Below, in pieces: positions 4,912-58,796 of a DNA stretch of 60,000 bases. Made by a program: the position numbers and the translations under genes. Each line of letters begins with the position of its first letter. Positions within the stretch are counted from its first letter, which is position 1. Source of the stretch: Lytechinus pictus (lineage: Eukaryota); assembly GCF_037042905.1 (NCBI RefSeq), contig NC_087250.1, positions 16,184,001 to 16,244,000 on the forward strand, in the 5' to 3' direction. The notes under the pieces are model-generated. The model searched no databases and was not told where the DNA came from. It worked only from the letters and a program-made list of their open reading frames with translations.

Positions 4912-4959
4912 CCACTCAAACCATTTGCTTTCAAACACCCGCATACATATTTTATCTAA

Positions 4960-8839: not shown

Positions 8840-8891
8840 GTCTTTTTCTGGATACTGCTCTCTGTATGCATGGTAATACAAATGACGAATG
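8840..8891 (+). CDS. Exon 1 (first visible): signal-peptide-like [17 protein letters not shown](G)
   Basis: ttgttacag acceptor, g|gttagt donor, hydrophobic peptide, phase-1 end fits next exon. Confidence 0.6.
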
Positions 8892-11800
8892 GTTAGTATA
8901 CATCTAAAAAAATAGATAATGTTCCTTATATAATTTCATAAATTGTAAAACGTCAACGTTTATACAATTACGGTGCTTCATTAAAACTTAAAAGCATTTA
9001 ACTAGCAAAGTTTAAACAACAACGTTCGTATTTTTTGGATACGCATTGTTTGAAAACTAGAACATGGTTAATACGTGTAAACAGTTTGATTTAAAGCGAT
9101 GCCTTATAAGACAGCATCATTAATTATATATGATTTAAGTAGATTGTTTATTGTAGTTTTGGTGTGTTTTAGAATGATGCTCCATGGCATTCAATTGTTA
9201 TATTTTCCCTTTTCAGGATCCTCATCATCTAACCTGAATGATATATGTCCCTCTGTTCCTCCTGACATGATGGAAGCATGTCCTTATACCTTCTCTGAGC
9301 ACACACACGATATGATCAAAGAGATTCCTAAGATAGTACCACTAGATCACCCTGACTATCATCAACTCGTACCCCCACAGGCACGGGGAAGGACCAATCT
9401 ATACTGTGCTCACCCAGGTAATAAGAGAAGCACTGGCATTTTTTTTGCAGGAGGGGGGGGGGGGGGTAAGACGTCCTAAATTGACTCCTTCTCGTCTTTT
9501 AAGGAGTTAGACCTCATAAATTATGACCTTTTTTGCAAGTTGTGCCATTTTATTTCCCCTTTCTCCCTTCAGGGTCTTCCCCTTTCTCTCTCCTTTTTTT
9601 CAAGTAGATAAAGGACAAGTCCACCCCAACAAAAAGTTGATTTGAATAAAAAGAGAAAAAATCAAACCAGCATAACACTGAAAATGTCATCAAAATCGGA
9701 TGTAAGATAAGAAAGTTATGACATTTTAAATTTTCACTTAATTTCACAAAACAGTTATTTGCATATCCTGGCAAGTATGCAAATGAGAAACTGATGACGT
9801 CGTCTACTCACTATTTCTTTTGTACTATATTATGTGAAATATGAAATTTTCTATTTTTCCTCTCATTGTCAAGTGAAACGACGATTAATTCCCCCCTGAA
9901 CACGTGGAATTAGCATTGTTTACTACTATACGGTTCAGTCAAGTTGATCCTTATTGTCCAATTGGTAAGAAATGAAATATTGTATAATTCAAACAATAAA
10001 AAACAAAAGAAATAGTGAGTGATGGACATCATTGACTGACTCATTTGCATGCCATTGAGTTGTGCATATCACTGTTTTGTAAAAGATAAGCGAACCTTTA
10101 AAATGCCATAATTCTCTTATTTTACATCCGATTTTGATGAAACTTTCAGTGTTATGCTAGTTTGATTTTTCTCTATTTATTCAAATCAACACTTTTCTAG
10201 AGTGGGGGCGATCTTAAGGGCGGTGTACGTTTATCATTAACAAGTTGATTTAGTTTTTACCAAACGGAAATTGCCTTCACTCTAAAAAGACTACATGATT
10301 GAAATATGTTTATCGTTACAGCATGCATACCGAATCCTTGTCTACATGGAGGCTCTTGTCAGGAAACATTTGCTGACTTCGATTGTAACTGTACAGCCTT
10401 CTACGTCGGGAAACGGTGTGAAAAGCGTAGGTACCCCTTGCGTTCATACACTTTAGAATTTACCCCTGATTCGGACTTCGATTTGTTTAAGCCTTTAATA
10501 ATTTAAGAATAAAATCTTACATTCTGATAGGTTTTGAAAATTAAAGAAAAGATAACAACAAAAGAAAAGCCAGACATTAAAATGTATAATCACTTGTATT
10601 ATAAAGTTAAACTTATTCATATACGAATGGAAGCATGTAAGCGTAAACATGATACTATATTTTAGTGATTCCTCAGTCACAATTGCTCTACCGCGGCTGT
10701 ACGGCGAGTCGAAAACAGCCGTTTTATTCATTTTTTTTAAACCACCTATATGTAGCCGGTCCAAAAAATGTTGAAGCGGCTTTTTTCGACTCGCCGTACG
10801 GCCGCCGTAGAGCAAATGTGACCGAGGTATAACTATGATGCCAAATATGCTGAAGATTTTCAGAATTAAATTCGACTTCAGATTTGAAAAATCGTTCAGA
10901 TCTTAAAAAAAAAAGGATTTATTTATTTCAACCATAATTTATTTCTGAAAGTACGGAATGAATGTGTTTATTTAAAAAAGACCTAAACATCGATTGGTTG
11001 TGTAAAAAAGAGTGACACTTAATTTCTTTTAATGTATATGTGTGCTCTATGTATAAATGTGCTAATTACAAGAAAACCAAACGTGTATAGAAACAATGAC
11101 GAAACATATAAAAGACGAAGAAATCATCAATCAAATTCTCACTGATGTAAATTCAATGAAATATTAGAATAAAAACTGTCTGTATAGCACCCAACGAGCC
11201 ATCCCCATCTAATTTTTTTTTTTTTTTACTGTTGGTTGTCACAGGGAACACAATCACTGATGTCAAATTCCTTGATACCGGATCTCGCCAGGGAGTAGTC
11301 TCCTTCAAGCCAATTAAAGAAGAATCTCCATGGGAGATTATGAGCTTCTGGGGCTGGGAACCTTCGACTTCTGACCTCATATGCAAATACCTTGGCTTTC
11401 CTGGAGCATACTCGACCGTAGATGGCGTCGTATTAAATAGTTTACCAGAGAGCGCCATCCTCGGTGCGAAGGTTATAGTGTGTCCTGGTGATGCAATGAA
11501 CATCACGGATTGCTGGCTTAGTGATGACGTTCAACTGGAGGGAACCGGAGTGGTCGGCGTAATATGCTGTGAAGGTATAAATGCATATTTTTTTGTATAT
11601 TTATTGTCCTCCCAAAACGACACTACACGTCATCAAGCATGGATGGTAATTTTTCCTTAGGGATGATGACCTTAAAATTCCTTAAATCCTGAGTGCATAT
11701 ACTTTGTTCAAGTTTAACCTTGATTTGATATCACATGCTTGAATGACAACCTAACTTAGTTCTTACACTCGACAAAGCCTGGAGTTAAAGAGTCGAAGTC

Positions 11801-14800
11801 GATAAAATACATAAACAAGTAAAGCAAGGTGATAAAAAGAGGGAGATAAAGAGAGACAGACAGAAAGTTGGTGGATGGAAATACGGACTCGGGGAGGATA
11901 AATATATATATATTATTATTTATATCTATATTAAAGAAAAATAACGAAGAACAAGTATAAAGAAATAAATTCTTGGTAGTGAGGAAAATATTTCAAAGCA
12001 ACGCACACTGATCAATTCCTTATTCATGTGAGGAAGCTATGATTATAATAATTTCTCAAATCGAGGACTACCTTTTTCAGGTTGGATACGCATATATATT
12101 CTTACAACATTAATTATGATATCATTCATAGATTATGAGTGTACCAGTCCAGGAATTCCCCTTGGCCTTGAGAATGGTGACGTCATAGATACACAGATCA
12201 CAGCATCCAGTGAGGATCAGACGTACAAGACGGCCACTGCAAGATTACACGGACCACAGTGCTGGCAGCCCTTAATACACGATAAATTGCAGTGGTTACA
12301 AGTCGACCTACTCGACGCACACCTTCTTACTGGTCTCTCCGTGCAAGGAAGGGTTGATGAAGATTATTACGTCACAGCTTTTACTTTGAAGTACTCCCTC
12401 ATTGACACAGTATGGTCAGTTTACAAAGATGAACTTAAACAAGTTAAGGTGATACATTTATCTTCTGTCTACTTTTGATCCTTATATCAGCTGTCCTTAT
12501 ATACCTGGCTACTATGTAGTTATTTTGGCTATGATCATAAAAGCTTTAATGAAGGTTGAAAACCCTCAAACATTCAACAATCAATTAACAATATCCACGC
12601 TTTACGTGTTTGGTTGGTGCTTGACTTTAATATTGTTTTTATTAATGAGAATAATTACACACCATTACACAATGTTCGGTATTTCCAACTTCACTCTAGT
12701 TACTGCCACAGAGAAATAACCGTGATCTAACAGCTATCGTATCTCTATCAACCAGCTCCGTTTACTCGTATTTCTGTGATATAACGGTGGACGCTATGAA
12801 ACTATGACGTCATAATCATAAGGTACACTACATAGATGTGCCACACTCCCAATATCACTTCTTCTGTTCTGAATGAAACCCAAGTATTTCCCAGGTAACG
12901 TCGATGGCTCCTCTGTGCAGACTCACTCCTTATACCCCGGTGTAGTGACCCGTTACGTTCGTATCCAGCCGTGGGCCTGGGAAGGGCAGATAGCTATCAG
13001 ACTAGAACTCATCGGTGTTGGACCAATTGCAGTGTGGGATGGTAAGTTGATAGTACTTTTATATTGAGTGTTTTGAATTGACAAGTTACTGTAAAACATG
13101 TTAAAAAGAACACCCGCCCTTTATGATTAAACTGGACAGTTCTTAAAAGAGAAATATAATTTGGAAAAGTAGGGAGTGCTCAATAGATGTGTTTGCATGT
13201 TTATGGGAGGTAATGAGGATGAGGGGGGTAATATCGAGCGAGAGGGAGAGAGACGGAGAAAGGTACGGGTGAGATTAAATCCATCGAAATAGGCAAACCG
13301 AACCAGGCCTTAGAATTAATGAAAGAAAGTATATGTATTCCTCTTTTCAGATGTAATGAAGAGCAACTGCAGCTTTGATATCGATCTTTGTGGCTGGCAA
13401 CAAGCCTTGGATGACGATTCTGATTGGCTACACCAGGGATCACGTGTGCCATCACATGACTCCTATCCTGCGCATGATCACATGAATTCGTGTGAGTAAT
13501 GAGCAAGATATAGATCTGTATTCAACTCTACTTCATTTCTGATTAGTATCCCTCGAGAAACAATGTTGTCATTAGACACAGTGGTTCTAATGAATCCCCC
13601 CCCCCAAAAAAAAATATATATAGAAAATAAATATAAATTAAAAAGATTGCCCTATTGAAAAAAAAATCCACGTGGAAAAAAGTGGAATACACAGCGAAGT
13701 TTGTCATGCCGGAGTCAACACTGGACTCCAATTATCTATTCGATTGCAATCTACATTATATATTATTATTCTATTATTATTTAACAGAGCAATATACCTA
13801 TATATCTATATCACTTTAGATGGCGCCTACGTCGTTATGACATCTAACCCTTCAATCAACCAAACGGCTAAACTACAGAGTCCACCAATTAAAAGTCGGG
13901 AAAGTTCTAACTCAAGTTGTCTTCGATTCTGGACTTACATGAATGGGGGTAGTGTTGGGAACCTCCGTGTTTATGTTTCTAACAACAAGACCGTCGTGAC
14001 ATCAGAGCATTTAGTGTTTGCTAGGTCAGGCAATCAAGGTGATCGCTGGATCTCTGCTGAGGTAAGTAATCTTGAACACTTTGGAAAAGAATTTCAGATG
14101 CTGCCTATATTGTGCTTGGGGTCCCTGCATTAGTGAAACACAGATCTTTCATTTCATTGCTTTAACAGTGCTGTTCCCTCATTTTTGTCATTAATTTGTA
14201 CAGCATGGATATATTACAATATCATATAAAAAAGAACAACTCGCAATGAACATAGGACGATCAGATTGTACGAAAATGAGTTTATTTACCTATGTAGGCC
14301 AATAATTGCAGTTTATTGTCAAGATACACATAACAAGTAGGTTAAAATTTACACTATCAATCAATCGAAATTACAATGCGAAAGCTTACAACTATGTGTT
14401 TCGCTCTTCATTCTCCGTGTAAATTTATGAGTTTATGATGCAAATTCAAAATCTTGGAAAAAGAGTTTTGTTTACAATTTTCAGTCTAATCGCATTGTTT
14501 TTGTTTGATACAAAAAGACTCCTAAATAAATACTGCAACCCCTTAAAGGGGTACACCGGACTAGAAACAACATGGTTTCGAACATATAAAAATCAGACAA
14601 ACAAAACACTGACAATTTTATGGAAATCGGACTCTATGCAAAACACGGACATGTTTACCTTGATATGAAAAAAAAAATCGAACTTTGAATCTCACAGACG
14701 TGAGAAGGATAAAGTAACTTATTCTCTAGAACCTCATTTTCCTGGCCTACGGAACATGATGTTATTGTCTCAAAGTAGAACTACTAGCAAGGAACTGTAT

Positions 14801-15171
14801 TTGCTATTATTAATCAAAAGATAATAATGATAATAAACATGGCGTAAAACCAAACAACATAGATTATTGGTGAATCTTATAACAATTGGCCAGCAACGTT
14901 CATTATTGTGTAACTGCCCTTTCACATGGTAAAACAAATCGCAATTTGAATGATTCCAGTGAAAAATAAGGCTAATGACGAATATTTAGCACGTGTAAAA
15001 CCAAACTAGGACATAATTAGAATCACGAACGCCAATCACAGTTACGATTACAATAGCAACCATCGTTACACCGATGATCCAAGATTCACGTGTGAAAGGC
15101 CCTAAGTCTTGTGGGCCGATCACCAAAGCTGTCTTAGGCTGGCATTTGCTATTTTAGATATAAATATATAC

Positions 15172-15205
<34 letters not shown>

Positions 15206-18200
15206 TCAAAATAGATCGTTCTCTCATATCATTCTCGAATTCAGCAGGAATCTGCTCAAATAGGAGTATCCGTATCAAACTACACTCTTAAAACTGTTGG
15301 GCATCATACTGTCCACACAGTTAAAACTTTATCCGATTCTGCTAAGTTTGAAACCAATAATGTGTGCTTTGGGTGAAAACTACACATTGTTGGTTAAAAA
15401 CTGCCCATACTTGGATACATTTTTAAACCAATTGAAGAGTGCAAAGTAAGTGTTGGAGATTAGCAAACTGTCGATATGCCATTGTTCTTTCTAGAAGCAT
15501 CTAATCCATGAACATGCAATTTTTTGTGAATCCCAGTACAAGACCGATGATTGTGGGGCTTTTATTTAATCTTTCTCATTAGGTTGAATTCATAATGCCC
15601 CATGATGCACCATTCTACATCACATTTGAAGGCAGGCTCAAATCATGGGACATTGGCTCTATAGCACTAGATGACGTCACAATCACTCCAGGCAATTGCC
15701 CTGCAAGTAAGTGTAATGGGTCTGAAGCATGTATTTAAAAACCTCACAACCAAAACCACAAACACAGCAGCAAGAATCACACAGAGCGTTATAAGTTGCA
15801 ATGTTTATCAAAATCTAATAAGTTTCTAATGTGTGCGAATCAATAAAAACATTTACACATGTATTAATGATTTTGCTACTTAAACGATGATATCAATTAT
15901 GCCTGTATAACCTAAAAAATGAAAGAATAAACTTCGCGTTACTTATAATAAGCATCTTAAATATATAACCGATGCATTTATTTTGTTGTTTTATATGGTT
16001 ATATTGCCAATTTAGGGATTAGATCAATAGAATGTGATTACGATGTCACTGATTGTGGATGGTATCAAGAGGATTCAGATGACACAGATTGGATGTTCAT
16101 ATCAGGAAGCCCTCCTACCAGCTCCAAGATGCCTCAGCACGATCATTCTATGTCACGTGGTAATTTGTTGCTATTGCATAGAAAGATAATCCAACACACA
16201 CATACACACACCCAGACACACGCGCGCCCCCTCACACACTTCCGTGCACACACACTAGGGAGCGACGCCCATCCGACTAGTCCCCCAACCAAGGGTTTTA
16301 TATAAGTCACCCCCCCTCGAGGACGGCGTTTGGATATGGTAACTGCATGGTGACACACCCTCGAAAATTTTTACTTGTTTTAATTGAAATAGGTAGGGAG
16401 CAAATCTGGGTCTTAATATCAAGGAGATTATGGTTAAAACACATTTTATTTGGTGAATTCACACCTTCTTACCCGCAAGTAACACACAAGGCATCCCCGG
16501 GAAGGTGTGACTCGTTATAGTCTGCCCTCCACAAATAAATAAAAGTTTTTAGAGCTGACTAAGTTATAAATAGTGATATTTTGTCCATTCAATTATTATT
16601 TCATTTGTTATATAACGAACAACTGAAAAACTACTAGACATGGTTTACCCACTCAATACGAAAAGCTTACACGTGATTGTAAACGCAACACCATGTGATG
16701 TGAATCCAATAAGGCCTATCATTTAATGTCAGTTTTGAATTACACATTCATCTTAATTGTAATACATAAGTACTGGCTTCAATATCGCTCTTAAAATCAT
16801 TAATTGTCACCCAAGACACATTTTACCAGAGTACTTAGTCAAGGGGTTTTATCGTATTCATCTGACTTCTTATTTGTATTCAAATGTAATCTTCACCGAG
16901 TCCCTTACAAGATAATCGAAGCAAATACCAAAGTCACTACTACGCCTCTTAACTATCGATTTTTATCATCTAGTGTGAAATATCAAAACTATGAATAATT
17001 TGTTACGCTTTTTTTTTTTTTTTTTAACTTGGCAAAATAAAGAAGAAAGGTGTATTGTACATGGATATATTACGGATAATACTGTGTGAAAACTAATATT
17101 TTCCTTCCTTCAGTGTACGTATTCGGAAGGGTTTATAGTATTGATTATTGCTGATTTACCCCAAACCAGATGGAAGATACCTGTACATTCTGGGATCGGG
17201 GAATGATGAATTTCACGAAGCTCGAATAGCAAGCCCTGTCATAACGATAGACGACTCTCCAGACAAAATCTGCTTCAGTTTCTGGTATTACGCCCTCAGC
17301 GATGGAACCAGTGAATTGAGTGTGGAGTTTGTGGAAGACGGGCCTGTCACAAACGTTGCTCTCACAGAAAAGATAACTATTGTATACAACAATGAAAAAG
17401 TTTGGCGACAGTCAAGGGTATGAAAATTGCATTTTTTTAATGAACTTTGTATTTTCTCATCATAATGATACATACAGTCAGTTATTGATTGAAACTGATT
17501 TGAAAGATTCCACGTGTTGCAACTCTTCGTCCAATGGCCGTTCATTATTTTCTTTTATCCTGAAGTTTGTGCCGGAGCAATGGATAGATAAATGGTTCTT
17601 AAGAAACCTTCATTTGATGTTTAGTATCAATGGTGCAATGGGAAAATCAAGATTCGCAGAAAATACATATAGATAGACACCCAAAAGAAATAATTATATT
17701 TCCTTGGACATCATTTAGTGTACAGAATGATTTACTTTCCCTTATATTTCTCATGTTAATAAGATACTGGGTGACTTTGCATGTAGCTGATTGGACGTGT
17801 CAAAGTGTGTCTCGGGCTGCCGCATTCGGAAATATTGAGTCACTAGAAACTATTCAAATTTATGTAAAATCTATGAAAAAGTAGTAAGTAAAAGTGCGAA
17901 TTGATTGATTTTTTTTTCGTACATTAGATCACCGTCTACTATCCGCCTCCTACTCCATTTTACATGGTCATAGTAGGCAAGGTCAAAGGTCATCATATTC
18001 TAGCTATTGATGACAGCACCCTCTATTACGGTCAATGTCTGGATGGTAAGTAAATAGTAGAGTATTAAAAACGTTCTGATTGCAAAGTTACAAACGGAAA
18101 TACGAGCGTCTTAAATAATGAATATAAAAAGCCTGCACTGGATTTTCGATGAATTACAAGGATTTTCTAGATTCATTATTTTCTTAGAATTTTAGATTTG

Positions 18201-39163: not shown

Positions 39164-39223
<60 letters not shown>

Positions 39224-45200: not shown

Positions 45201-47675
45201 TCTGGAAATTCAGAGGTCAGTATGCGCAACAATGATATAATATAAACTTAAATGACACTACCAAGGAGTTTAGAATACACCTTTGCTCTTTCACAGTGAG
45301 ATTGACCGGGGGTGTCACTCCTAGAGAAGGCACGGTAGAGTTACTATACAACGAATCTTGGGGTTCTATTTGCCACACCAACTGGGATATCGACGATGCC
45401 AATGTAATATGTCGAGGCTTAGGATACGACAGAGCCCTCAACGCTGTTGGATCAGCATTCTACACTGAAGGATCTGGTGAGATTCTCATAGATGATGTGT
45501 CTTGTACAGGGTCTGAAGAGAGTGTCTTTGACTGCGGACATTCACCAATCGGAGAAACAACATGTGTCCATGATGAAGATGCTGGTGTTGTTTGTTCGTA
45601 CGAAGGTAAATCCATTATCATGTTAATTTGCAAGTACCTCATACGCTTATAGCGGTTTTGTGGGTCTTTGAGTTAAGAAAGAGAACCCTTGTTCAGTTTA
45701 CTTTCATTATTAATACTCAAATGGCGAGGTGGAATTATATATATTCAATCTGAGACGACGTGGTTTCATTAAGCGTGGGCATTTCTTTTCTTTTCATACA
45801 ATAGGACATTGACCTCCTTATTTTTTTTCAATTAGCTTCTTTGCTTCATTGACAGAGGCCTAATGTAGATACCGAGAGCAGTGTCGTGAATCTTTGAGTT
45901 GGGAAAGGGTATACCTCAATATTTTGCTGGATCCAGTGTACCATTCTTCACTTTTCATCATCAATACTCAAATTAAAAGGAAAAATTAAAGAGAGTCAAA
46001 TTCAAACAACGTGATTGCATTGATTTTGGTTAAATCGTGGATTTCTTTTTAAATCAAAGTAATGAATTCCCTCTGATTGATAGTGTAATTATATAACCAT
46101 TGGCAATTTATTATTTATCATTTTGTTTGGTAGGACTTCGCATTTCCAGCTCCGTATAATTGGAACATAAACTTTTTGGTGTCATTTACCATGCTGCGAT
46201 TTATTATTTCGGTTTTCGAATCACCCGTATTTCACTGCCCAGGAATGTTCAATCTGTTTCAGAATGTGGACATCTATTCCATAATAAATTATGAAAAATG
46301 AACGGGTGTAGGTGTTACACTGCAAAAACTCTGGTGTTGATTTTACACCAACCCGGAATCTATATAACTCCACACCAGAGAAGTGTTAAACAACACCAGT
46401 TTGGTATTGGTCTTACACCAGATAGGTGTTTATACAACACCAATTAGTATTAAAACAGCATCGGTTTGATTCCAAACTAATGTTTCAATACTTCTGTGGT
46501 GTGGACATATATAGATTCCAGGCTAGTGTTAAATCAACACCGGAGTTTTTGCAGTGTAGGCCCGAGTTATAGATTTCAAGCTGACAATGTTTTCTTTTAT
46601 TGATATGTTACTAAACCACTCTATACCTTCTTTAATATTTTAAATAGATGATTCAGAGTTCTATCGTCTTAAAGGATCGTATCTCTACATCGACTCCAGT
46701 GAACAACTCTCTACAGCAAATATCACCAGACTGCAAAGTCCAATTATACAAATACCCGTCGCAGAGGGCGCTTTATGCTTCAGGTTTTGGTATTACATGT
46801 TTGGTGAAGATGCCCAATCACTGAGAGTGTATGTCAATGATGTTGAGGATGGTGTTGCTAGTGGAGAGATAGCTTTTGAAGTAAGTGGTAACCATGGTGA
46901 GCAATGGATTATGGACCAGGTAAGTCGTGACGTCATAATGACACTTTGGTTTAATATCCTTTTGGTCTAATTGCAGCATGAATTGCAATTTAATTTTTTT
47001 TTTTAGATTTTCAATAAATCAAACTGCAAATTTGGCATTTGCGCGTGTTTTCCTTCAACGGGCCCCTTTATTTTGTATATCATTATCAAATACCGATTTA
47101 ACTCCAATGAATTTCGGCTATTATGTTGATCGTGATTTCAATGATAGCTTGTGCGGGGAATGTAAACCTATATATGTGAATACTGATAAGATTGCCACCC
47201 TTGACTAGTTTATTGAATTCTATGGACTGAATTAAGGAGAAGCATTGTCCTCTTTTGTTACCTTTGAAACTATCAGAAAGAAAACATTCAGTGCAGATAA
47301 CCCTTATGAAGCGGTACCACAGTCTAATTGACGATTCTTTGACTTCTATGATGTACGAGATCGATCGTTTAGCTCTAGCAACCTTAGAATTTCGTATTCC
47401 TCTCTGTGCATGACGTATTTTATCCATAGTTTGACATCGTTGGAAATGATACAGCTCCGTTCACTGTAACAATCGAGGCTGTCACAGGTGTTGGTGTTAA
47501 TGGTGACATAGCAATCGATGATATTGAAGTACTAGCCGGAAGCTGTCCTTACGGTAGGCCATACCTTCATATGTTATCTTTATTTAGTTTGTTTTTATTG
47601 CTTTTCACCTATGATAAAGTGTATATACATGCATATATATATATAAATATATATATATATGTATAAACATATATG

Positions 47676-47738
<63 letters not shown>

Positions 47739-47769
47739 ACTACTATTACTACTACTACTACTACTACTT

Positions 47770-47824
<55 letters not shown>

Positions 47825-50800: not shown

Positions 50801-53800
50801 TGCAGAGATCACGTTACAAAGTGCTCCGATTTCGGTTTGATTTTGCCGGGCTAAATTAAAAATAATAATAATGAGCGCCACCTATCTAGAAATATTCTAT
50901 TCCGAGGCACGTTATTATTATTATTACCCCGGCTTTAGCTCGAGCTGCCTTTCAGCGCTCATGAATTCAAGGAATTAATCTTGCCGGGTACTCATTCACC
51001 TTACCTGGGTTAAGTGCAAAACAATGTGGAGAAATTTCTGGCTGAAGGAAATTACGCCACGGCTGGGATTACGCTTGGATGTGGGCACAAAAGCTAGATG
51101 GACACACACAGTTACACGTTTTACCCCATCATGAAATTAAGGAGAACCATCATGTCTCTAGTCATTCTCAATTGATTTCATTCTTAGGTTGATTTTGGTC
51201 TTCGACGTTGGTTGACGGGCGCCCTCACACAAGGTGTGTTACAGTCATCAGAATGGAGTACATTGCTATCATTCTCTTATATCAACGAGAGCAACGGAAG
51301 ATCGTTCATTGCTGAACATGAGTGTAATTTACCGGGAGGAAAGGTATGGTTCTAAAGTACACAGCTTCAACACTGTGTGAACACATGGTAACCATGTGCA
51401 CGGCCACGGTCATGACGTTGCATGGAACATAGTATAGGGGGTGGGGCGCATACTGAAAGTAAACAATAGTGTGCATATTGTCAGCTGTCAATAAATAACA
51501 TCAAGATAAAGTATTATGTGAATGATATTTCTGTTCAAGTTCATTATGGTTGCGATAAATATCCCACTCATACATATGTCATCAACAGCATATTAGATTT
51601 GATTTCTTGTGTACATCTTTTCAACCTTTTCTTGTACAATTTCAGTTTCTTAAAATTATTTAAATTAAAGAAAAAAAGGAGCTTTAGTTACTTGATTTTA
51701 TTCAGTGTTTTCTTTCGGTCATTCTGCTTTATCCTGATACGTGGCAAGAATTGAATTTTTAATATGCATCACCAAATAAACGTTTGGTCTTCTTTTTCTT
51801 TCAGATTTTTCGAACTAACTTTGACAGCAATTCAATAGTGACTACCCTGTTTCCCAAGCCAATACTCTCAGCAAACATTCGAATCCACGTTGAGGGCAGC
51901 CATTCAAACAGCGCCCTCAGGTTTGAAATACTAGGTAAGATGAACACCCCTCGAAATAAAAACCAGTATACCGTTTTATAGAGACTCGTGATACATGTTA
52001 TAATAACAAATGCAAAGTTGTTATAACAAATTTACCACCAGCCAATCATAATGATTTCAGTAGCATTCAACTGCTATTGCAAATTTTATATTATAACACG
52101 GGTCGTGTGGTCCAGTGGATAGAGCATTGGACTCATAATCGCAAGGTTGTGACTTTGAATCCCCACTCTGCCATTGTCTCCACTTTGATAAAAAGGCCCA
52201 AGAGTAATATCTGTCGTCTATAAGGTCACGCAGCCACTATGACTGATTAACCTAGACGTAAAATGACTCCTAGGTAATTGGTTATATACCAGCTTGGCGT
52301 TTACAAGCAAAATGCTGTCCTGTCGAGTTCTTACGCGAGTTACCATAAACAGAAACAGAAACAAGTTTTAAGACGGCCCTTGAGCACCCTGGAGCTGCTT
52401 GCATAGTGGGTAAAACTTGGTAAAATTGACAACATATTCCAATTTGAGCCGAGTCATAGAGAAATATAAATATGTAAATATAATTGGATAAATACGCCGT
52501 TGTATATTTATATCTGATTGTTTTGAAGGGCTAAAAGTGGCTGCAAAAAGGCAAGTTGATCTCTGTGTTGGAAAAGTATCACTCTATAATTTTATACTAT
52601 TATTTGCAGCGATCAAATGGTATGTAACTTAATAACAATGCTTATCATGAAACGTAACAATGCAATCAGAATTACGGGCTCCAGAAGAAGGGGAAAATTG
52701 GCTAGCTATGTCGAATTTCAACGAAACTTTCATGATACGAGACCTTGATTATTACGATCGTGATAACTAATACTGTTACACATAAAACCTTCCGAATTCT
52801 TCAGCAACAATGACGAACGCAACTTTCTTTAATGATCAATACATGAGCTCAACTCATCTTGATATTGATTTTGTTGTCTTGAAGGGATGCAAGATATCGA
52901 CTGTAATGATCTGTATGTAAGTGGGCACACAGAGAGTGGCATGTATACTATTAGACCAGCTGACGATGATCAGTCGTTGAGGGCGTACTGCGATATGGTT
53001 TCTGATGAAGGCGGTTGGATGGTAAGTTTGATTTCTTTTTAAGAAATGGACACAGCAATCTAATTATCAATTGAACATACTTCAAATGATCAGTCGAGTT
53101 TAAGACAAATGAGCACTTTCCGTACGTACACACGATCGACGAATCAGAGCAGTTGTTTAGAGGATTACTCTGCCGAATTGTTACTGATACAAACTATTAA
53201 AAATATGTCTATCAATTAACTATTTGGGGTTTAAGTTCCCTTATTGTAAGTGTTTTAAAGCGATGTAAATATTAGGGAAAATAGATTTTCTTTCATTTTA
53301 TTGTCCTTTCCCCCATTTGTTTCTTGGGGGGAGGGGGGAGTTAAGAAGAGAGTTGCCACTCATATCATAAAGATTAATGCTTAACAGATTACGTTAAATT
53401 TTCAAAAAAAGATTATCAATTGCAATTTAGTTGAAAATCTTGGATAGTAGGGTCTAAGGTTTACAGTTGGGTGAAACAGTAATTAATTTTCATGTTCATG
53501 ATTATTGAGTTTAACCTAGCGCATGCAAAAATGAATTTTCAACCGTTATTGAAATAACATTTAAGTTTCTAATCTTTTCTAATGTTATGAAAAATACCAG
53601 ATCTTTCAGCGTCGAACGAATGGTAAAACATCTTTCTCCAAGACCTGGTCGGATTATGAAAATGGGTTTGGCGCCCTGACCGGTGAACACTGGATAGGAC
53701 TCAAGATTCTTACTAGGATCTTAGCTCAAAGGCCATATGAACTTCGTATTGAACTGGAGTACGCTAACGGGACCATGTATGTAGCCGACTACCCGGGTTT

Positions 53801-56800
53801 CTCGGTTAGTAATCGCTCAACCGGATATCGGCTTAATATCGACGAGCTTGAAGGCAGTTCAGGTAAGAATAATATTTATATTAAGTAATGAAGAATATCC
53901 CGGACAATACCGAGTAATGTCGACCGCGAATGCCGAGCAAATGATTAAGAGAAATAGAGCTAGCCAACCATGGGCGGAAATCTATCTCGAAAGGTAGGGG
54001 GGACAACGGGCTGATCCAGCTAGCCTTGGGGGGGGGGGGGGGGCAAAAACATTTTCAGCCATATGTTAATCCCCGATCGGCCGCTCGAAGGTAATTTTTG
54101 TCTGTTTCATTGAAGGAGTAGTCCTTATGGTCACTTTTTAGCTTTATTCTTATAAATCAACATAAATATATGATATCATTGTCCTTATTTATATAATGCG
54201 AGCGCGAAGCGCGAGCAAATTTTTTGGGGAAAATTTATGTATTTTTTCCCTAAAATTTGAACATTTTGGGCAATGTTTGTTATCCTGAAAAAGATGTATA
54301 TACAACTAAATATTTACCACGACCGCGAAGTGCGAGCAGAGGTTAACTGGTGGAAAAGGTACCTGTTAAAGACTGCTTGCAATTAGCCATGAAGACGTTA
54401 CATATTTCAACAATCAAATAATGCGAGCGCAAAGCGCGAGCTGAAATCAGTTTTTGAATTGTTTACCTAATGACTGGAAATTCTAAGCACTTTTTGTAAC
54501 TTAAACATATAATAGGTATATAACTAAACAATTGATGCGAACGCGAAGCGCGAGTGGAAAGTTGTGAGATTTAGACCTAAGAACGAGACACTCTATTCAT
54601 GTTTTGTAAATCATGAAAAGGATGAGTAATTGGGGGTCTTTCTTACACCCGGTCCTTACATAAATAAAGCGAGTGCAAAATGCAGCCAGAAAATGTTCAT
54701 ATACGTTTAATTTGAATTGATCGAAAAGGTACTTGTTAAGGACTGCTTGCACTTAGCCATGAAGACGTTACATATTTCAACAATCAATGCCAGCGCGAAT
54801 CGCGAGCTAAAAAATTTTGACATTTTTTCAAAAGAATCGAAAATTTTAATCAATTTTTGTAATCGTGAACAGGGTAGCTATATAACTAAACAATTGATGT
54901 AAGCGAAGCGTGAGCAGAAAAATTCGAGATTTAGACCTAAAAACGGGACACTCATGTTTTGTAAATCATGAAAAGGATGAGTAATATGGGATCTTTCTAC
55001 ATTAATAATGCGAGCACAAAATTTTTGATATTGTAATCTGAAACTGGATAATGATTTAAATAGAGAACAAATTGAATATCTGAATAAACATAAGCGTTTT
55101 TCAGATTTAGAACTAGAATCTCGGCATTTTACACATCTATCAGCGAGCGCGAAGCGCGAGCTTAAACTTTTTGATATTCTGATCTGAAAAAAAAAAGAGT
55201 CAATTTCAGCTATATATTTCATGCACTTTGTAGGAAAATTGTGAGGTGGATATGGATCACACTTAATATTTCATTATTATTTGAGTTTTGACATAGGACC
55301 GGGACATCCTTATAGGACAAGTCATATGAAAATGATGACTATCTTCCTATTCCTCTTACTAAGCGCGAGATGAAACAAAAGGGACAATTTAATCATTAAA
55401 TTTATATCTTATTTATTAACGCATTTTGCGGGCGAGAAATCTGATGATATTATGGCCTGAAAACTGGACATTTCAAGCACTTTTGTAATTAGGAATAGAA
55501 TGCATCAGTTAAAATATTTTTAACCATCAATGCGAGCGCAAATCGCGAGCCAAAATCTTTGATAAACTGTCATGAAAATCAATATTGAGACATACATAAA
55601 TCGCCAATCAAAATACAATTAGCACTATCTGCTACGTTTTGACAATCAGGCTTGAAAAGGGATATTTTCAATCTAAATGGAATACACAAAAATAATAGGT
55701 ACTGAATAAATCGAATTTTGCGAGCGCTCAGTGCGAGTAGAAAATGCCAATATTCAGACCATAAAGCTGTAACTTTTATAGATCACTTTTTTTAAAATCC
55801 GTTTGTAAATCACACAAAATAATGAAAGTTCGATTTCCGAGGTGAAATGTATAATGTATATTGACTTCCAAACATGATATTTAAGCTCCATATTGAAAAA
55901 TCACCTAACAGACAATGCGAGCGCGAAGCGCGAGCGAAAATTTTATACAGTGACATGAAAGATTCTTTCCAAGTTTTCACCTCATCTTATTTTATTCACT
56001 CTTGAAAATTTGACAAGCAAAATAAACAAAGGTTTTCACCCAAAATGTAAGGTCATTTAGTCCAAAATACATGTATTATTTCGAATGTGAATGATGCATT
56101 TTCTCCATCATAAAAGACCAAAAATAGTAGGGGGGACATTTGATATTGTGTCCCCCCTACTATTTTTGGTAGGGGGGACACGTCCCCCTGTCCCCCCTGG
56201 GATTTCCGCCCATGTAGCCAACAATGCCGATTGGGTATCGCTATCCTTGACTACTCATTTGACAATGTCATCTACTTTCAACAATTCCTGAGAATGTTGT
56301 TGCATGACATAGTGGCATGTATCTTTATTGAGAGTTTGGTAGGACAATATAATTATGTTTACCTTCGCACGGGCTGTATGAGTTATATTAATGATACATT
56401 AATGAGTGTATAATTCATCGATATCGATAGCTAGTATCGATCCATGCGTGTTACGTTTTTTAAATGTACGTTCCTCACCTAGAATATAACAAATTTTATT
56501 AACAACCTTTGTTGATGAAATAAATATGTCATGGGCATGACTGCTTTGTGTTTGCAACCGCCCTGATTGTAAGGATGCTATACTTGAAAAATCAATCACC
56601 TTGTAAATAATTTATTCACCTTGACTTTAAAATCAAGTACATGTGGGTCTTCTTATTTCGTAGCTCATATTTCATAACATAGCTCATTGCCAGTAAATAA
56701 AGAAGCAAGGTTTTTATCGATGTGGACGACAAATCAATCTATTATTATAAAAGAGATTGTTAAAATGGCGTAAAATCAATATTAAACAAACTTTAACTCT

Positions 56801-57387
56801 TTGTGTTTTGCCGTATTTCTAAATAAATGATTTTTATCAAATTTCATTCATAACAATATACTTGTTTTTATCTTTGACTAAATATCTAAATTGAGGAAGA
56901 TAGTGAAAAAAACCAATGGGCCTACGCAATATTGTTTCGAGGTTTGCTATGTTTTGCAGTTAAAAGAGTGGATTTTTATTTTCCTTCCTTTATATATAGC
57001 TGACACCGGTATCATCATTGAATATTGATTGAGATAATTGAAAACTGGATCGGACAGTGAAATGATGTAGATGAATGAATAACCAGCTTACGTTAATGTG
57101 TACAGCTGATTATACAAAAACTAAATAAATTGAATCATCTTGCTGTGTAACACAGTAATTGGATTTTCACTGTTTAATACGTTCATTCCTTGAATAAAAT
57201 ATACTTTTAGGACTACGACATGTTTGCTTAGAAGGGTTCTTCTCAGATAGTAGTAGTAGGAGTATCAAAATCAAGTAGTAATGCAAAGATATGTGTTTGT
57301 AACAAAAGAAGTACATATAGTAGCAGCAGAACGTAGTGATAGTAGTAGTAGTTGTAGTAGTAGTAGTGGTAGTAGAAGTAGTAGTAT

Positions 57388-57441
<54 letters not shown>

Positions 57442-58796
57442 AAGAAGTAGGAGCAGCAACATCGATTACAGAAATAGAAGTGCAAAAATTGGTGTTAGTT
57501 ACACAAATAGTAGCAGTATAGTCTAAAGTAATAGTAGTAGTAGCAGCAGCAGCAGCAGAAGTCAGTGGTAGTAGCAGCAGTAGTTGTAGTTGTAGTAGTA
57601 GAAGTAGTATAATCAGTAGCAGGAGCAGCAGCGGTAGTAGTTAAAGTAGTAGTATAAAGTACCAGTAGAAGTAGTAGTAGCAGCAGCAGCAGCAGCAATC
57701 TTAGTAATTAGTCTGCTAAGCAAACCTTTCATTGAGTTAAGGGTCTGAATGTGCAGCCTATCAATGGTATTGTGTACTGATAGCCCTCTCGCTTTATATT
57801 CAGTGTTATTTTTGTATGTGTTAGTCTTTGCGTGGAGACTCACTTGTTAATCAAAGTTTCAATCGGGGTCTGTACCTGCAGACTAAGTAGAAGCAGCACC
57901 AGTAGTAGTAGAAGCAGCAGTATTCATGGTAGTATTAGTATAGATAAGTAGTATTACTAGTAGTAGTAGTAGTAGTAGCAACAGCAGCAGTAGTAGTAGT
58001 TCTAGCAGTAGCAGCTCTACAATTACTACTACTAAGGGCCCCATTCCACAGAGGGGAGACCTTTGAAGGACCTTTCAAAGACAAAAAATTGACATGGTCT
58101 TACAGCAGTCTTTCAGAGGTCTTGCTCTCTGTGGAATGGGAGTTTAAGTGGAGGAGTATATATAAATTGTGTATATCAAAGAATTCAGATCGAGTTAAAA
58201 GTCACGTACAAAGTAAGGAGGGAATGTTTCTTTGATAATAGCAATGCTGACCAACCGACACCATCTGATTATTTCCTATTATCGTCCACAAATCACTCGC
58301 AATTGACCAAAATCAGATTTAGATGGCGTATACCCAGAATAAATCTAAATGCCTTTTTAATGGCAGGCATTTGATCATTACGCAGATCAGTACAGCTGAG
58401 TCTTCGATTAAAAAATCAATTCAACAGCTCTTGACAGCTCAAACTAGTAATTTGCCATAACGGGAAGCACCAAAGAGTTGGTTAGTCGATTTATTTTAAC
58501 TTTCATTTTCATCCAATCTTCTTTTCTTCCCATAATGCTCAGATGACCCACTTGCCTACCACAACGGAAAATCCTTCGTGACCCCTGATCAGTTGCCTAG
58601 TAACGAGATGCCTTCATGTGATGGACCACGCCCATCTGGCGGATGGTGGTACGTCGGGCAATGCGATGGTCGCGTGAATCTGAACGGTTTGTATCCAGGT
58701 ATGACTGGTGACGTCACACGTGAGATGTATTGCGAGGTTCCAAATGACGGTTCCCCTTTGATATACACACAGATGAAGATCAAACCAATATCCTAA
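8840..58796 (+). CDS. Multi-exon gene (>=32 coding exons, ~1970 aa, 5' exon missing) for a large, probably secreted EGF/SRCR/FA58C/MAM/fibrinogen-like/PAN mosaic protein
   Basis: Manual exon chain with AG/GT boundaries and consistent intron phases. Exon lengths sum to 5913 nt (divisible by 3), ending at TAA 58794-58796. Recognisable domain motifs in nearly every exon; no transmembrane segment seen. Confidence 0.85.
9217..9417 (+). CDS. Exon 2: N-terminal region with 3 Cys, no recognised domain
   Basis: ttttcag acceptor, g|gtaat donor, 201 nt phase 1-1, open frame [15 protein letters not shown]...LYCAHP. Confidence 0.7.
9612..10205. mobile_element. Kolobok-like MITE, second copy (opposite orientation)
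   Basis: aggacaagtccaccccaacaaaaag end and internal inverted arms match 21018-21610. Confidence 0.78.
10322..10426 (+). CDS. Exon 3: EGF-like domain
   Basis: [33 protein letters not shown], six-Cys EGF pattern; 105 nt phase 1-1. Confidence 0.92.
10671..10827. mobile_element. Short palindromic MITE
   Basis: cctcagtcacaattgctctac..tacggcgagtcgaaaa mirrored by ttttcgactcgccgtac..gtagagcaaatgtgaccgagg. Confidence 0.7.
11245..11574 (+). CDS. Exon 4: divergent SRCR-like domain
   Basis: W...[10 protein letters not shown]...[12 protein letters not shown]...VGVIC pattern; 330 nt phase 1-1. Confidence 0.8.
12132..12448 (+). CDS. Exon 5: FA58C/discoidin domain 1, N part
   Basis: [18 protein letters not shown]...ARL...QWLQVDL...[12 protein letters not shown] sites. 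Confidence 0.92.
12885..13041 (+). CDS. Exon 6: FA58C domain 1, C part
   Basis: YFPGNVD...[23 protein letters not shown]; donor gtaag. Confidence 0.9.
13351..13491 (+). CDS. Exon 7: MAM domain 1, part A
   Basis: [21 protein letters not shown]...PAHDH; not in ORF track; cttttcag / gtgagt sites. Confidence 0.9.
13820..14061 (+). CDS. Exon 8: MAM domain 1, part B
   Basis: GAYVVM...AKLQSP...[20 protein letters not shown]...GNQGDRW; gtaagt donor. Confidence 0.92.
14916..15102. mobile_element. Harbinger-like MITE, internally deleted copy
   Basis: gccctttcaca .. tgtgaaaggccc ends; longer relative at ~42989-43470. Confidence 0.6.
15583..15706 (+). CDS. Exon 9: MAM domain 1, part C
   Basis: FYITFEG...[16 protein letters not shown]; gtaagt donor. 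Confidence 0.9.
16016..16159 (+). CDS. Exon 10: MAM domain 2, part A
   Basis: [21 protein letters not shown]...PQHDHS. Confidence 0.88.
17170..17417 (+). CDS. Exon 11: MAM domain 2, part B
   Basis: GRYLYI...ARIASP...ICFSFWYY...W. Confidence 0.9.
17928..18045 (+). CDS. Exon 12: MAM domain 2, part C
   Basis: PFYMVIVG...[13 protein letters not shown]; gtaag donor. Confidence 0.87.
18246..18488. mobile_element. Short hAT-like MITE (GGCGGATCC family)
   Basis: CAGGGGCGGATCC start; 8-bp TSD AGTG(A/C)AGA. Confidence 0.7.
18723..18880 (+). mobile_element. tRNA-derived SINE, degenerate copy
   Basis: gggtcatgtggcccggtggttagag head; shared ctataaggtca..gccactat..tgattaa..tagacgtaa body. Confidence 0.6.
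19102..19155 (+). CDS. Exon 13: 54-nt linker exon
   Basis: tatcag acceptor, g|gtaag donor, phase 1-1, [17 protein letters not shown]. Confidence 0.65.
19721..19849 (+). CDS. Exon 14: Caspr/neurexin-IV-type fibrinogen-like domain, part A
   Basis: [36 protein letters not shown]. Confidence 0.9.
21018..21610. mobile_element. Kolobok-like MITE
   Basis: TTAA TSD, AGG..CCT ends, long imperfect TIRs; second copy at ~9612-10205. Confidence 0.8.
21865..21940 (-). mobile_element. tRNA-like SINE head
   Basis: Minus strand ggtgccgtggccgagtggtctaagg (A box) .. gggatcgatctcc (degenerate B box). Confidence 0.5.
23316..24070. mobile_element. piggyBac-like MITE
   Basis: TTAA|CCCTAGTTCTCCCGGGG ... CCCCGGGAGATTTATGG|TTAA. 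Confidence 0.65.
24277..24840 (+). repeat. Local tandem duplication (~353-bp period) including a GGCGGATCC MITE
   Basis: ctagcatagt..ttttggagtgacgttctttctcacaatg at 24277 and 24630. Confidence 0.8.
24890..25735. repeat. Purine-rich low-complexity tract
   Basis: A/G-dominated + strand. Confidence 0.8.
27158..27372. mobile_element. Degenerate short MITE
   Basis: gggtctgtcgcgtcgtttcgtaaaagccttg versus caaggcttgcacggaacgatgtgatagggcc imperfect IR. Confidence 0.5.
30362..31465 (+). CDS. LINE ORF1 (coiled coil plus L1-ORF1-like RRM region), 367 aa
   Basis: Heptad region followed by [12 protein letters not shown]...AHRI...PIIIRF...IRTDLP motifs typical of LINE ORF1 proteins. Confidence 0.88.
   Translation: MSQGKNSYNLRKQTDPKKSAKISKFSSKMESTPTPSVKRKPPKLPSLTPDPRNNDHVTNDPPNADRSPIIEAIGELKTMFTGLSVEVNKVNAKLDCVIDELNAIKRDLSSTKESVSELKVSVSLAHDKITDIENDAIPLLKSEIDKNKEDMETKLNLLEIHDRKQNLLCYGIPESKPENIFAVVQDIFCHFLRVSREEAAKIPISNAHRIPSTNRPKQFGGNRNVPMAATPDPIIIRFVRIPDRDRLLNAFERQPRRPRSDHTDIQTPADTPTDAHATPPFGYAAAASATTPEDNPAFSRVTIRTDLPPNLKRERGRLASIAYNLRREKNVSTRIRLIGAKLFLQTRKISRNGNPHQTTWSNWSPAT
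32240..34920 (+). repeat. Tandem repeats inside the LINE inter-ORF spacer (~780-bp duplication plus ~330-bp unit x ~3.5)
   Basis: tcgtcaaagtttatttaataagccaacatgc recurs at ~32342 and ~33123; caataa(g/t)actcaatgttaatgc recurs at ~33720, 34047, 34381 and 34715. Confidence 0.88.
35491..38601 (+). CDS. LINE ORF2: APE endonuclease plus reverse transcriptase, 1036 aa
   Basis: IGLTETW, YRPP, MGDFN, TDHFP (APE); [35 protein letters not shown] (RT); no stops. Confidence 0.97.
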   Translation: MANNVTPGTDLTNDDFLNVFQSLMHSHSNDRDSDFVNNMISTLNSNNLDFVAPFDENEQEQVNPSSYYTENQLVSHFSNLDKTVFSMFHTNIRSMNSNFECLRNLLDHRLNLNCSVIGLTETWLSDTPHSLYSLQGYDLIVNNRPNRQGGGVALYIKTDFNYTKKNVLNHVNDSIETIFVEIEFVGRKNIVIGIIYRPPNSSHNDFLLNLENILSNPILRSKDCFLMGDFNANLLKYDSDSFVQEFYGTFLTSSFIPLISKPTRISEHSSTLIDNIFTNMHPFPHAGVVISDITDHFPIFANFQILQQTQQPSKIYTRFFSEGNINTFKERLDELDWGNIYNMTDVNNCFNDFMDKLTNLFNECLPVRQSNQRSRKRSPRSPWITTSLLRCINRKNNLYLKHKAKPTVNNKSRYLNYKNTLTGLLRREKKNYFSCQFTKCKRDARNTWKIINEVLNKHEKKNAVSKIKIDNRIIDNVQEISDHFNNFFVEIGPNLASKIPDSNKSFHEYLPNPNPNSMFFAPVDESEILDIVNNLHSKRSCGHDGFDNAITKNIISCIIEPFTYICNLSLRTGVFPNRMKLAKIIPIFKKGDPLLISNYRPISLLSTFSKILEKIVFSRTIDFLNNNEILTCCQFGFRKHHNTSHAILSLINKVANSFDKGSHTIGMFLDFSKAFDTIDHQILLYKLSHYGIRGIVLDWFRNYLHERQQYVSIENHASQLRNINCGVPQGSILGPLLFILYINDFNRSSDLFSFIMYADDTNLFLSHSNIETLYQIVNSELNFVSTWVKANKLSLNLEKTNFMLFSNTFNELPYPILIDNIQIKQATTTKFLGTFIDDKLSWKYHINNICKVISRNVGVINKLKWVFPPNILKSLYSTLVLPHLNYGILAWGNSATYMLNKVLLLQKKAMRIINQVDFRHHTDGLFQSNNTLKIYDIYRLNLAILMYQYNNQGLPSIFNNIFRVNNEIHRYPTRQINLYHLPRTRTAFTQNTFIFTAPKFWNSLPLNTRESLSIGTFKFKVKKSLLAPYSQQTSIT
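40244..40401 (+). CDS. Exon 15: Caspr-type fibrinogen-like domain, part B
   Basis: IMVFTHN...[26 protein letters not shown]; phase 1-0. Confidence 0.87.
41037..41157 (+). CDS. Exon 16: Caspr-type fibrinogen-like domain, part C
   Basis: [26 protein letters not shown]. Confidence 0.9.
41187..41424. mobile_element. CACTG-ended MITE
   Basis: ta|cactgtaaaaactgtggtgttaa .. ttaacaccacagttttttgctgtg|ta inverted ends. Confidence 0.65.
42016..42210 (+). CDS. Exon 17: Caspr-type fibrinogen-like domain, part D
   Basis: CNCDG...[22 protein letters not shown]...TLGPLYCKG. Confidence 0.9.
42527..42763 (+). CDS. Exon 18: PAN/apple domain
   Basis: [29 protein letters not shown]; 237 nt phase 1-1. Confidence 0.85.
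42989..43470. mobile_element. Harbinger-like MITE
   Basis: gccctttcacac .. gtgtgaaaagaccc ends; shares arms with 14916-15102. Confidence 0.6.
43532..43687 (+). CDS. Exon 19: MAM domain 3, part A
   Basis: [21 protein letters not shown]...TGPLRDH; 156 nt phase 1-1. Confidence 0.87.
44068..44400 (+). CDS. Exon 20: SRCR domain
   Basis: [26 protein letters not shown]...LCQSLGF...[11 protein letters not shown]...[11 protein letters not shown]. Confidence 0.93.
44630..45017 (+). mobile_element. tRNA-derived SINE with (GAA)n tail
   Basis: A box TAGCTCAGTCGG, B box GGTTCGAGTCC, ~300-nt body, GAA tail. Confidence 0.8.
45297..45605 (+). CDS. Exon 21: SRCR domain (group A, 6 Cys)
   Basis: [25 protein letters not shown]...[10 protein letters not shown]...[15 protein letters not shown]...[11 protein letters not shown]. 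Confidence 0.95.
46318..46556. mobile_element. CACTG-ended MITE
   Basis: ta|cactgcaaaaactctggtgttga .. tcaacaccggagtttttgcagtg|ta inverted ends. Confidence 0.7.
46648..46919 (+). CDS. Exon 22: MAM domain 3, part B
   Basis: GSYLYIDSS...TRLQSP...[10 protein letters not shown]...LRVYV...GNHGEQW; not in ORF track. Confidence 0.9.
47430..47553 (+). CDS. Exon 23: MAM domain 3, part C
   Basis: [30 protein letters not shown]. Confidence 0.9.
47620..47880. repeat. Compound (TA)n-(CTA)n microsatellite
   Basis: Direct reading. Confidence 0.95.
48070..48216 (+). CDS. Exon 24: MAM domain 4, part A
   Basis: [22 protein letters not shown]...PPYDNT. Confidence 0.9.
48326..48600. mobile_element. Short hAT-like MITE (GGCGGATCC family)
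   Basis: cagtcacggatcc .. gaatccgcctctg; 8-bp TSD AATGT(G/T)GA. Confidence 0.7.
49171..49433 (+). CDS. Exon 25: MAM domain 4, part B
   Basis: GYYMYFDS...ARLWTP...[19 protein letters not shown]...GPQGFEW. Confidence 0.92.
49838..49934 (+). CDS. Exon 26: MAM domain 4, part C
   Basis: [27 protein letters not shown]. Confidence 0.88.
50376..50575 (+). CDS. Exon 27: FA58C domain 2, part A
   Basis: C...[17 protein letters not shown]...ARLN...GGW...SWIE. Confidence 0.9.
50861..51070 (-). mobile_element. SINE fragment
   Basis: Minus strand aatcccagccgtggcgtaatttccttc..acccaggt..gaatgagtaccc resembles a SINE central region; (AAT)n segments. Confidence 0.5.
51188..51343 (+). CDS. Exon 28: FA58C domain 2, part B
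   Basis: [16 protein letters not shown]...; phase 0-0. Confidence 0.87.
51805..51934 (+). CDS. Exon 29: FA58C domain 2, part C
   Basis: [12 protein letters not shown]...IRIH...ALRFEILG. Confidence 0.9.
52100..52365 (+). mobile_element. tRNA-derived SINE
   Basis: gggtcgtgtggtccagtggatagagc head, degenerate B box, (AAACAG)n tail; related to 18723-18880. Confidence 0.7.
52885..53021 (+). CDS. Exon 30: fibrinogen C-terminal (FReD) domain, part A
   Basis: [20 protein letters not shown]...[13 protein letters not shown]. Confidence 0.92.
53601..53862 (+). CDS. Exon 31: FReD domain, part B
   Basis: [34 protein letters not shown]...YELRIEL. Confidence 0.93.
53969..56214. mobile_element. hAT-like non-autonomous element, second copy
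   Basis: TIR CATGGGCGGAAATC / GATTTCCGCCCATG; 8-bp TSD TAGCCAAC. Confidence 0.9.
57245..58035. repeat. Interrupted (TAG)n/(CAG)n microsatellite region
   Basis: Direct reading. Confidence 0.9.
57708..57886. mobile_element. ~175-bp MITE, second copy, within a TAG microsatellite
   Basis: Same TIRs and internal sequence as 5313-5484. Confidence 0.65.
58036..58141. mobile_element. Short palindromic MITE
   Basis: cccattccacagag .. ctctgtggaatggg inverted ends. Confidence 0.55.
58543..58796 (+). CDS. Exon 32 (terminal): FReD domain, part C, stop TAA
   Basis: [13 protein letters not shown]...GGWWY...C...NLNGLY...TQMKIKP*. Confidence 0.9.

Follow-up and report, generated by a model that had tools for sequence, protein, structure and literature searches.

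The window, a stretch of 60,000 nt of Lytechinus pictus DNA, carries on its + strand a chain of 32 GT-AG exons between positions 8840 and 58796. Spliced by coordinates, these form a single stop-free frame of 1,970 aa, with the domain order [signal part]-X-EGF-SRCR1-FA58C-MAM1-MAM2-linker-FBG-PAN-MAM3a-SRCR2-SRCR3-MAM3b/c-MAM4-FA58C-FReD. An initial set of 30 exons was located by six-frame translation and splice-site inspection of the + strand, all flanked by an AG acceptor and a GT donor in consistent phase, the sole stop lying at 58794-58796. A further exon (9217-9417, phase 1-1) was found by a splice-site/codon scan trained on these 30, and an 18-aa linker exon (19102-19155) was revealed by a homologue. 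The GC content of the exons is 0.47, as compared to 0.36 for the whole window. A preliminary description of the same DNA had postulated a continuous-phase exon chain for a mosaic of about 2000 aa combining six domain families, in agreement with our reconstruction: all 30 exons that it implied lie on the + strand with compatible phases in one frame, and only the domain X and linker exons had been missed. Pfam matches EGF, SRCR, F5/8C, MAM, Fibrinogen_C or PAN in 23 of the 30 exon peptides scanned, a set that left out the signal exon and the linker exon; several single-exon matches lie below the gathering score, e.g. SRCR1 with 23.4 vs 26.1 bits.

The first exon in view (8840-8891, phase 0-1) encodes the hydrophobic part of a probable signal peptide, which aligns with the hydrophobic N-terminus of the S. 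purpuratus models P0004 and P0009. It opens in phase 0, and an in-frame stop closely precedes it; hence the ATG exon lies further 5'. None of 18 ATG-to-phase-0-donor candidates in 1-8800 was confirmed; a candidate at 7851-7874 would give a basic n-region. The signal peptide proposed earlier is thus probable, but only partly in view. It is followed by the domain X exon (9217-9417; 66 aa with three invariant cysteines), the EGF exon (10322-10426; phase 1-1; PF00008, E 5.9e-5) and a degenerate SRCR1 exon (11245-11574; phase 1-1; five cysteines; PF00530, E 7.5e-5). FA58C-1 (12132-13041; exons 12132-12448 and 12885-13041; PF00754) precedes MAM1 (13351-15706; exons 13351-13491, 13820-14061 and 15583-15706; PF00629) and MAM2 (16016-18045; exons 16016-16159, 17170-17417 and 17928-18045; PF00629 on two of the three exons). 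The phase 1-1 linker exon, which is present also in P0003, P0004, P0009 and P0010, leads into the FBG domain (19721-42210; exons 19721-19849, 40244-40401, 41037-41157 and 42016-42210), assigned through Pfam and homologues. This domain is interrupted by an intron of 20,394 nt, and its four exons are contiguous in the same four models. Its label as Caspr-type rests on matches named contactin-associated, Pfam detecting the first FBG exon only, and weakly.

Downstream of the PAN exon (42527-42763; phase 1-1; PF00024, E 2.9e-9), the third MAM domain is split. Its N-terminal part, MAM3a (43532-43687), covers Pfam profile positions 1-38 and ends in a DH motif, whereas MAM3b and MAM3c (46648-47553; exons 46648-46919, profile positions 41-117, and 47430-47553; Pfam) follow only after two nested exons. 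These are SRCR2 (44068-44400; phase 1-1; six cysteines and a 9-aa N-terminal linker; PF00530, E 1.6e-23) and SRCR3 (45297-45605; phase 1-1; six cysteines; PF00530, E 3.7e-30), which are 42% identical to each other; the MAM3b exon carries an N-terminal extension of about 9 aa. The chain continues with MAM4 (48070-49934; exons 48070-48216, 49171-49433 and 49838-49934; Pfam and contigs) and FA58C-2 (50376-51934; exons 50376-50575, 51188-51343 and 51805-51934), the latter based on a weak Pfam match on one of three exons, similarity to FA58C-1 and the PF00754 listed for P0005. It ends with the C-terminal FReD (52885-58796; exons 52885-53021, 53601-53862 and 58543-58796, stop TAA; PF00147 and a contig joint between FReDb and FReDc). 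The probable 3' UTR (58797-59900) is covered by contig pieces at 58539-59442, 58840-59302 and 59547-59900, with poly(A)-signal-like hexamers at 59209, 59314 and 59906.

In the hydropathy analysis, a strongly hydrophobic stretch occurs at the N-terminus only. No internal transmembrane stretch was detected, 1.55 being the highest value of any 19-residue hydropathy window beyond the N-terminal region in the 30-exon version, consistent with the absence of a transmembrane helix noted in the preliminary description. The predicted protein has 17 N-glycosylation sequons and no furin-type site, and is probably secreted and soluble. Eleven exonic variants (6 synonymous, 5 not) are present among the rows listed; they were not used as evidence.

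Homologue searches yielded a single collinear model set for each species and no expanded family. Per exon, models from L. pictus are 94-100% identical where shared (P0005 is identical over 823 aa), those from L. variegatus 84-98%, and those from S. purpuratus 51-81% outside the signal part, with the same order in all three. The older entry P0009 (1,890 aa) spans the chain without MAM1a, MAM4a and part of PAN. The statement that there is no obvious named ortholog therefore needs modification, as models exist in all three urchins; it stands insofar as these models are fragmentary and carry names that say little or mislead ('uncharacterized', 'MAM and LDL-receptor class A ...-like', 'neuropilin-1-like', 'lactadherin-like' and 'MFAP4-like'). 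In P0001 (L. pictus XP_054757152), retroelement RNase H sequence is fused to the N-terminal exons, probably an annotation artefact. Among the 15 matches of a near-length word search, none outside these urchins has the same architecture, and a HMMER search with FBG-PAN gave 1,334 matches, where among the best 150 listed MAM occurs in P0003 only (0 of the 149 others). The suggested lineage specificity is hence supported, the architecture having been found in Lytechinus and Strongylocentrotus only in the searches run; restriction of the gene to camarodont urchins is provisional, as the best 150 of 1,334 matches were seen and fragments could hide orthologues. In the open-access literature (supplements and subscription papers lying outside this search), we found no description of the protein or of SRCRs inside a MAM, no mention with 4/5 domain terms, and no paper citing six of the accessions; urchin proteome or expression tables may list fragments of the gene.

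What the protein may do was approached through its ligand residues. SRCR group A is defined by a six-cysteine SRCR domain, and SRCR2 and SRCR3, with six cysteines each and Pfam scores of 83 and 105 bits, belong to it, while SRCR1 has five and is under the cut-off. FReD lectins of the ficolin, FIBCD1 and tachylectin type have a D-x-D-x-D Ca loop and, in the acetyl site, a Cys-His. In the alignment, the D-R-D-x-D and Cys-His of FIBCD1 and MFAP4 are replaced in the urchin FReD by P-E/D-Q-L-P and Cys-Asp. SALSA binds ligands via cation site 2 (D1019, D1020 and E1086), and D1019A alone abolishes binding (PMC7043408). The equivalents of D1019/D1020 are G-I in SRCR2 and H-T in SRCR3 (C-G-I and C-H-T past the second cysteine), using a numbering mapped through motif spacing; S. 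purpuratus SRCR2 retains one Asp of the Asp-Asp pair. SRCR3 retains the structural cation residues (equivalents of D1023 and D1026) as well as DD at 1058-59.

The loss of these canonical SRCR and FReD ligand residues speaks for a scaffold in matrix or mucus rather than a recogniser of the DMBT1 or ficolin type, leaving room for other ligand surfaces. Steady conservation and the single collinear model set likewise seem more typical of a structural protein than of an immune family undergoing diversification. Based on these sequence comparisons, we propose that the most likely role is multivalent cross-linking, protein-protein or through glycans, within extracellular matrix, cuticle or mucus, to which we assign a probability of roughly 0.55. 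Of the immune, matrix or adhesive functions considered in the preliminary description, the matrix part is thus favoured and the immune and lectin part weakened. Alternatively, the protein may be a soluble multivalent pattern-recognition protein or agglutinin, similar to DMBT1/SALSA or ficolin, that would act via SRCR, FA58C and FReD in gut mucus or coelomic fluid. The presence of SRCR, discoidin and FReD modules and the retained structural cation residues and DD 1058-59 of SRCR3 are compatible with this, as is the resemblance of SRCR2 and SRCR3 to the VEVLxxxxW bacteria-binding motif, which is named in a reference title (PMC7043408). However, the G-I and H-T pairs, the P-D-Q-L-P and Cys-Asp of the FReD, and one model set per species rather than an expanded family argue against it, and we regard such a recogniser as a tentative second choice, with perhaps one chance in four.

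MALRD1/DIET1, the automatic name of P0003 and P0005, has MAM alternating with LDLa, plus a transmembrane helix. Several MAMs are present in both, but the urchin protein lacks LDLa (no PF00057 match in the exons or P0009) and a transmembrane helix, and the name is a similarity label. Caspr/CNTNAP proteins, arranged as FA58C-LamG-LamG-EGF-FBG-LamG-EGF-LamG-TM, share the FBG-like domain, whereas laminin G and the transmembrane helix are absent from the urchin protein as judged by Pfam and hydropathy. DMBT1/SALSA/gp340 is secreted, as the urchin protein probably is, and likewise has several SRCRs; the closest solved-structure relatives include DMBT1 and CD163. DMBT1/SALSA also carries CUB and ZP, neither of which was found in Pfam scans of the exons or P0009. 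The urchin protein has three SRCRs with five to six rather than eight cysteines and without the canonical cation site 2, in contrast to the many type B (four-disulphide) SRCRs of DMBT1/SALSA (PMC7043408). FIBCD1, MFAP4 and ficolin also have a C-terminal fibrinogen domain, and the S. purpuratus orthologue matches FIBCD1 with E 5e-38; the urchin protein differs in the replaced Ca loop and Cys-His, and has no collagen stalk. Several adhesive proteins of echinoderms contain discoidin and EGF domains, and Nectin and Sfp1, which are secreted components of echinoderm extracellular material, share discoidin (F5/8C) domains with the urchin protein (PMC7037938). Nectin has six discoidin domains, though, and in Sfp1 they are combined with vWD, C-type lectin and C8; for neither is a MAM, SRCR or FReD described there (PMC7037938). 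In L. variegatus, the spines are marked by another discoidin protein (PMC11574069).

The FBG-PAN junction is 43-46% identical in three representative proteins, S. purpuratus XP_030841851, Acanthaster XP_022086669 and Ptychodera XP_070541414. These contain C-type lectin and in some cases FN3, without MAM, SRCR or FA58C, and are not orthologues. As an urchin, a sea star and an acorn worm all have C-type-lectin-rich proteins with this pair, it has moved as a cassette, and such ambulacrarian proteins are its likely source.

We conclude that 8840-58796 is probably one gene, as the preliminary description had assumed. Splicing of its 3' part is observed in sequencing-run contigs, which were compared over 40000-59900; although none of these runs is recorded as RNA, introns are missing from the contigs, which connect SRCR2 through to the last exon in overlapping pieces. 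X14 record 7 joins SRCR2, SRCR3 and MAM3b and extends 148 nt further upstream, and the 4-nt overhang before SRCR2 matches MAM3a, whereas the 30 further donor exons compared gave no fit. The guest SRCR exons are hence included in spliced sequence. X1 record 3 runs from MAM3b to MAM4b across exactly 271 nt, equal to MAM3c plus MAM4a; X14 record 9 has 453 nt beyond MAM4b, exactly MAM4c plus the first two FA58C-2 exons; and X1 record 4 joins FReDb to FReDc. Raw-read exon depth is about 1 or less in two RNA runs (6% sampling), in which repeats dominated. The 20-kb intron is bridged by computational models, namely the predicted proteins P0003, P0004, P0009 and P0010 from three species.

The chain could instead comprise two or three neighbouring genes or transcripts, for example with a cut at the 20-kb intron, as drawn by current RefSeq, where the entries of L. 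pictus, L. variegatus and S. purpuratus come as separate pieces and the locus is divided into 2-3 genes. A sense-strand LINE in this intron with a 55-nt A-run in sense (39167-39221), and the restriction of contig and read evidence to the part 3' of position 40000, would suit such a break. Against this, the long intron interrupts a single domain, FBG, and is crossed by the four models, P0009 alone covers the whole chain, the annotation break points vary and fall inside domains, and the downstream pieces are without a signal peptide of their own. A split locus is therefore improbable in our estimate, and what RefSeq lists in each of three model urchins as two or three entries under different names probably represents a single gene.

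The LINE in the 20-kb intron measures about 9 kb (30243-39221, +) and ends in a 55-nt poly(A). It has an ORF1-like frame of 367 aa (30362-31462) without Pfam match and an ORF2 (35488-38598) with intact endonuclease-RT, separated by an unusually long spacer of 4 kb that contains a 334-bp tandem array. The LINE interrupts the right arm of a foldback-like element (27441-39276), in which the short tandem units 30168-30242 and 39224-39276 are mirror counterparts of those at 27441-27613, and two 49-bp arrays (27671-28513 and 29892-30093) lie in inverted orientation. An inverted pair of copies of about 590 bp (21015-21613) matches an intronic repeat at 9609-10198. Interspersed repeats at 44618-44990 and 52100-52261 attract hundreds of stranded reads in RNA runs, and a repeat at 18724-18875 matches 52100-52261 at 75%; no tRNA or Rfam match was obtained for the short interspersed repeats.

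Novel mosaics of such modules are common in invertebrate deuterostomes, and the domain list alone is therefore modest news. The most unusual feature of the protein is the nesting of the SRCR pair in MAM3, which the preliminary description listed without stress and which we confirm. MAM1 to MAM4 are each built from three exons and have in common a phase-1 intron just past the DH motif; in MAM3, this intron contains the two phase 1-1 exons of SRCR2 and SRCR3. Consequently, the loop from the DH motif to the next strand, 4-9 residues in 42 of 42 motif matches of other MAM proteins, comprises 228 residues in MAM3. The split MAM was seen in four of 19 MAM-bearing proteins compared, all four being orthologues. 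The MAM3 halves retain four cysteines, C-D-F, both W, DH and IAIDD, and their conservation between genera equals that of the intact MAM1 and MAM2, with a stem branch of 0.65 vs 0.99 and 1.75, the shortest of the three. The extensions of about 9 residues of SRCR2 and MAM3b are retained in S. purpuratus and absent from other MAM exons.

It could be argued that MAM3 is a broken relic, or that the two SRCR exons form a regulated cassette, left out most of the time so that a plain MAM results. Skipping would preserve the frame, both exons being phase 1-1, and one X1 contig enters MAM3b with a 2-nt overhang compatible with SRCR3 or MAM3a; moreover, the exon-joint listing is dominated by repeats, so that the joins known are those among the rows listed. 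The inclusion form is, however, present in X14 record 7 and in each of the 4 models that span this part, the insert has conserved linker extensions on its flanks, and the halves are no more diverged than intact MAMs, which makes either version unlikely.

MAM3 probably still folds as one jelly-roll around the insert, and modelling is compatible with this. AlphaFold2 was supplied with P0003 residues 695-1093 and a 20-row alignment including 8 intact MAM rows with contacts across the split. With this guided alignment, pLDDT is 70-83 for MAM3a (residues 11-30), 70-91 for MAM3b/c and below 50 for the SRCRs, with a mean of 53.6. The guided model superposes on whole MAM domains over 161-168 residues (5l73: Z 18.6, rmsd 2.4, 161 aligned), as compared to about 125 columns for the C-terminal MAM half alone; as intact MAM rows were part of the alignment, this indicates compatibility with the MAM fold rather than proof. 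From motif spacing, the insert presumably falls between the equivalents of NRP1 D685 and N691, while the E651 equivalent is Ser in S. purpuratus MAM3. In NRP1, a Ca2+ with E651, D685, D796 and the carbonyl of N691 as ligands ties the N-terminal region to the first strand and the last (PMC5104691). SRCR termini meet in one sheet (PMC7043408), which suits insertion into a loop.

We propose the following assembly. The product would be a soluble modular glycoprotein of roughly 1,980 aa, built by class 1-1 exon shuffling in camarodont urchins. A two-exon SRCR pair would have landed in the post-DH phase-1 intron carried by every MAM of the gene, opening the short post-DH loop of MAM3 into the 228-residue excursion, which would be closed by SRCR folds with adjacent termini. 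The linkers of about 9 residues on either side may absorb slack, and we infer that the MAM Ca2+ site clamps the two halves, so that the SRCR pair would jut from the chain as a side branch.

Such an event is in agreement with the exon-shuffling rule that class 1-1 modules enter pre-existing phase-1 introns (PMC3927616), although in one survey only a minority of novel exons had been gained in the middle (PMC2926785). MMP-2/9 offer a precedent for nested class 1-1 insertion, in that their fibronectin II modules of class 1-1 are inserted internally (PMC3927616) and occupy a loop of the catalytic domain (PMC4466143). Both cases share class 1-1 modules internal to a loop of the host domain, in MAM3 between the halves at profile positions 1-38 and 41-117. 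The urchin protein differs in that the host is a mobile MAM, the guest an SRCR pair and the site between putative Ca2+ ligands, with no enzyme involved; an SRCR pair inside a MAM appears to be undescribed in the open-access literature. The DH loop of MAM domains can thus be considered insertion-tolerant, and the locus is a clean natural example in which exon shuffling has placed modules inside a further mobile module, an arrangement kept in Lytechinus and Strongylocentrotus. With about 400 aa, MAM3[SRCR-SRCR] would be a small construct for the folding of a split, metal-clamped domain.

We give little credence to a Ca2+-gated version, in which the N-terminal piece of MAM3, 228 residues away from the remainder, would complete the MAM of its own or a neighbouring chain and domain swapping, aided by the odd cysteine of domain X, would polymerise a Ca2+-dependent mesh, switched by inclusion or skipping of the SRCR exons and displaying SRCR pairs as side branches. 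Domain X itself is 76% identical in S. purpuratus, including the three invariant cysteines, and its odd cysteine could link chains. It matches no Pfam family and gave no usable ESM Atlas match, and AlphaFold2 yielded no fold for the N-terminal half from a 4-sequence alignment of close relatives (pLDDT 27), which does not in itself demonstrate novelty. An RGD at residue 1005 was considered as an integrin ligand and dropped, since it is not kept in L. variegatus or S. purpuratus.

The searches also returned a family in which SRCR is followed by one or two FBG domains (P0033, P0034, P0037-P0039, P0031 and P0182), two of which (P0033 and P0182) additionally have Link and CUB; its named members are uncharacterised proteins of shark, gar and frog. 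In P0025, an acorn worm protein named DMBT1-like, two FBG domains lie between SRCR arrays.
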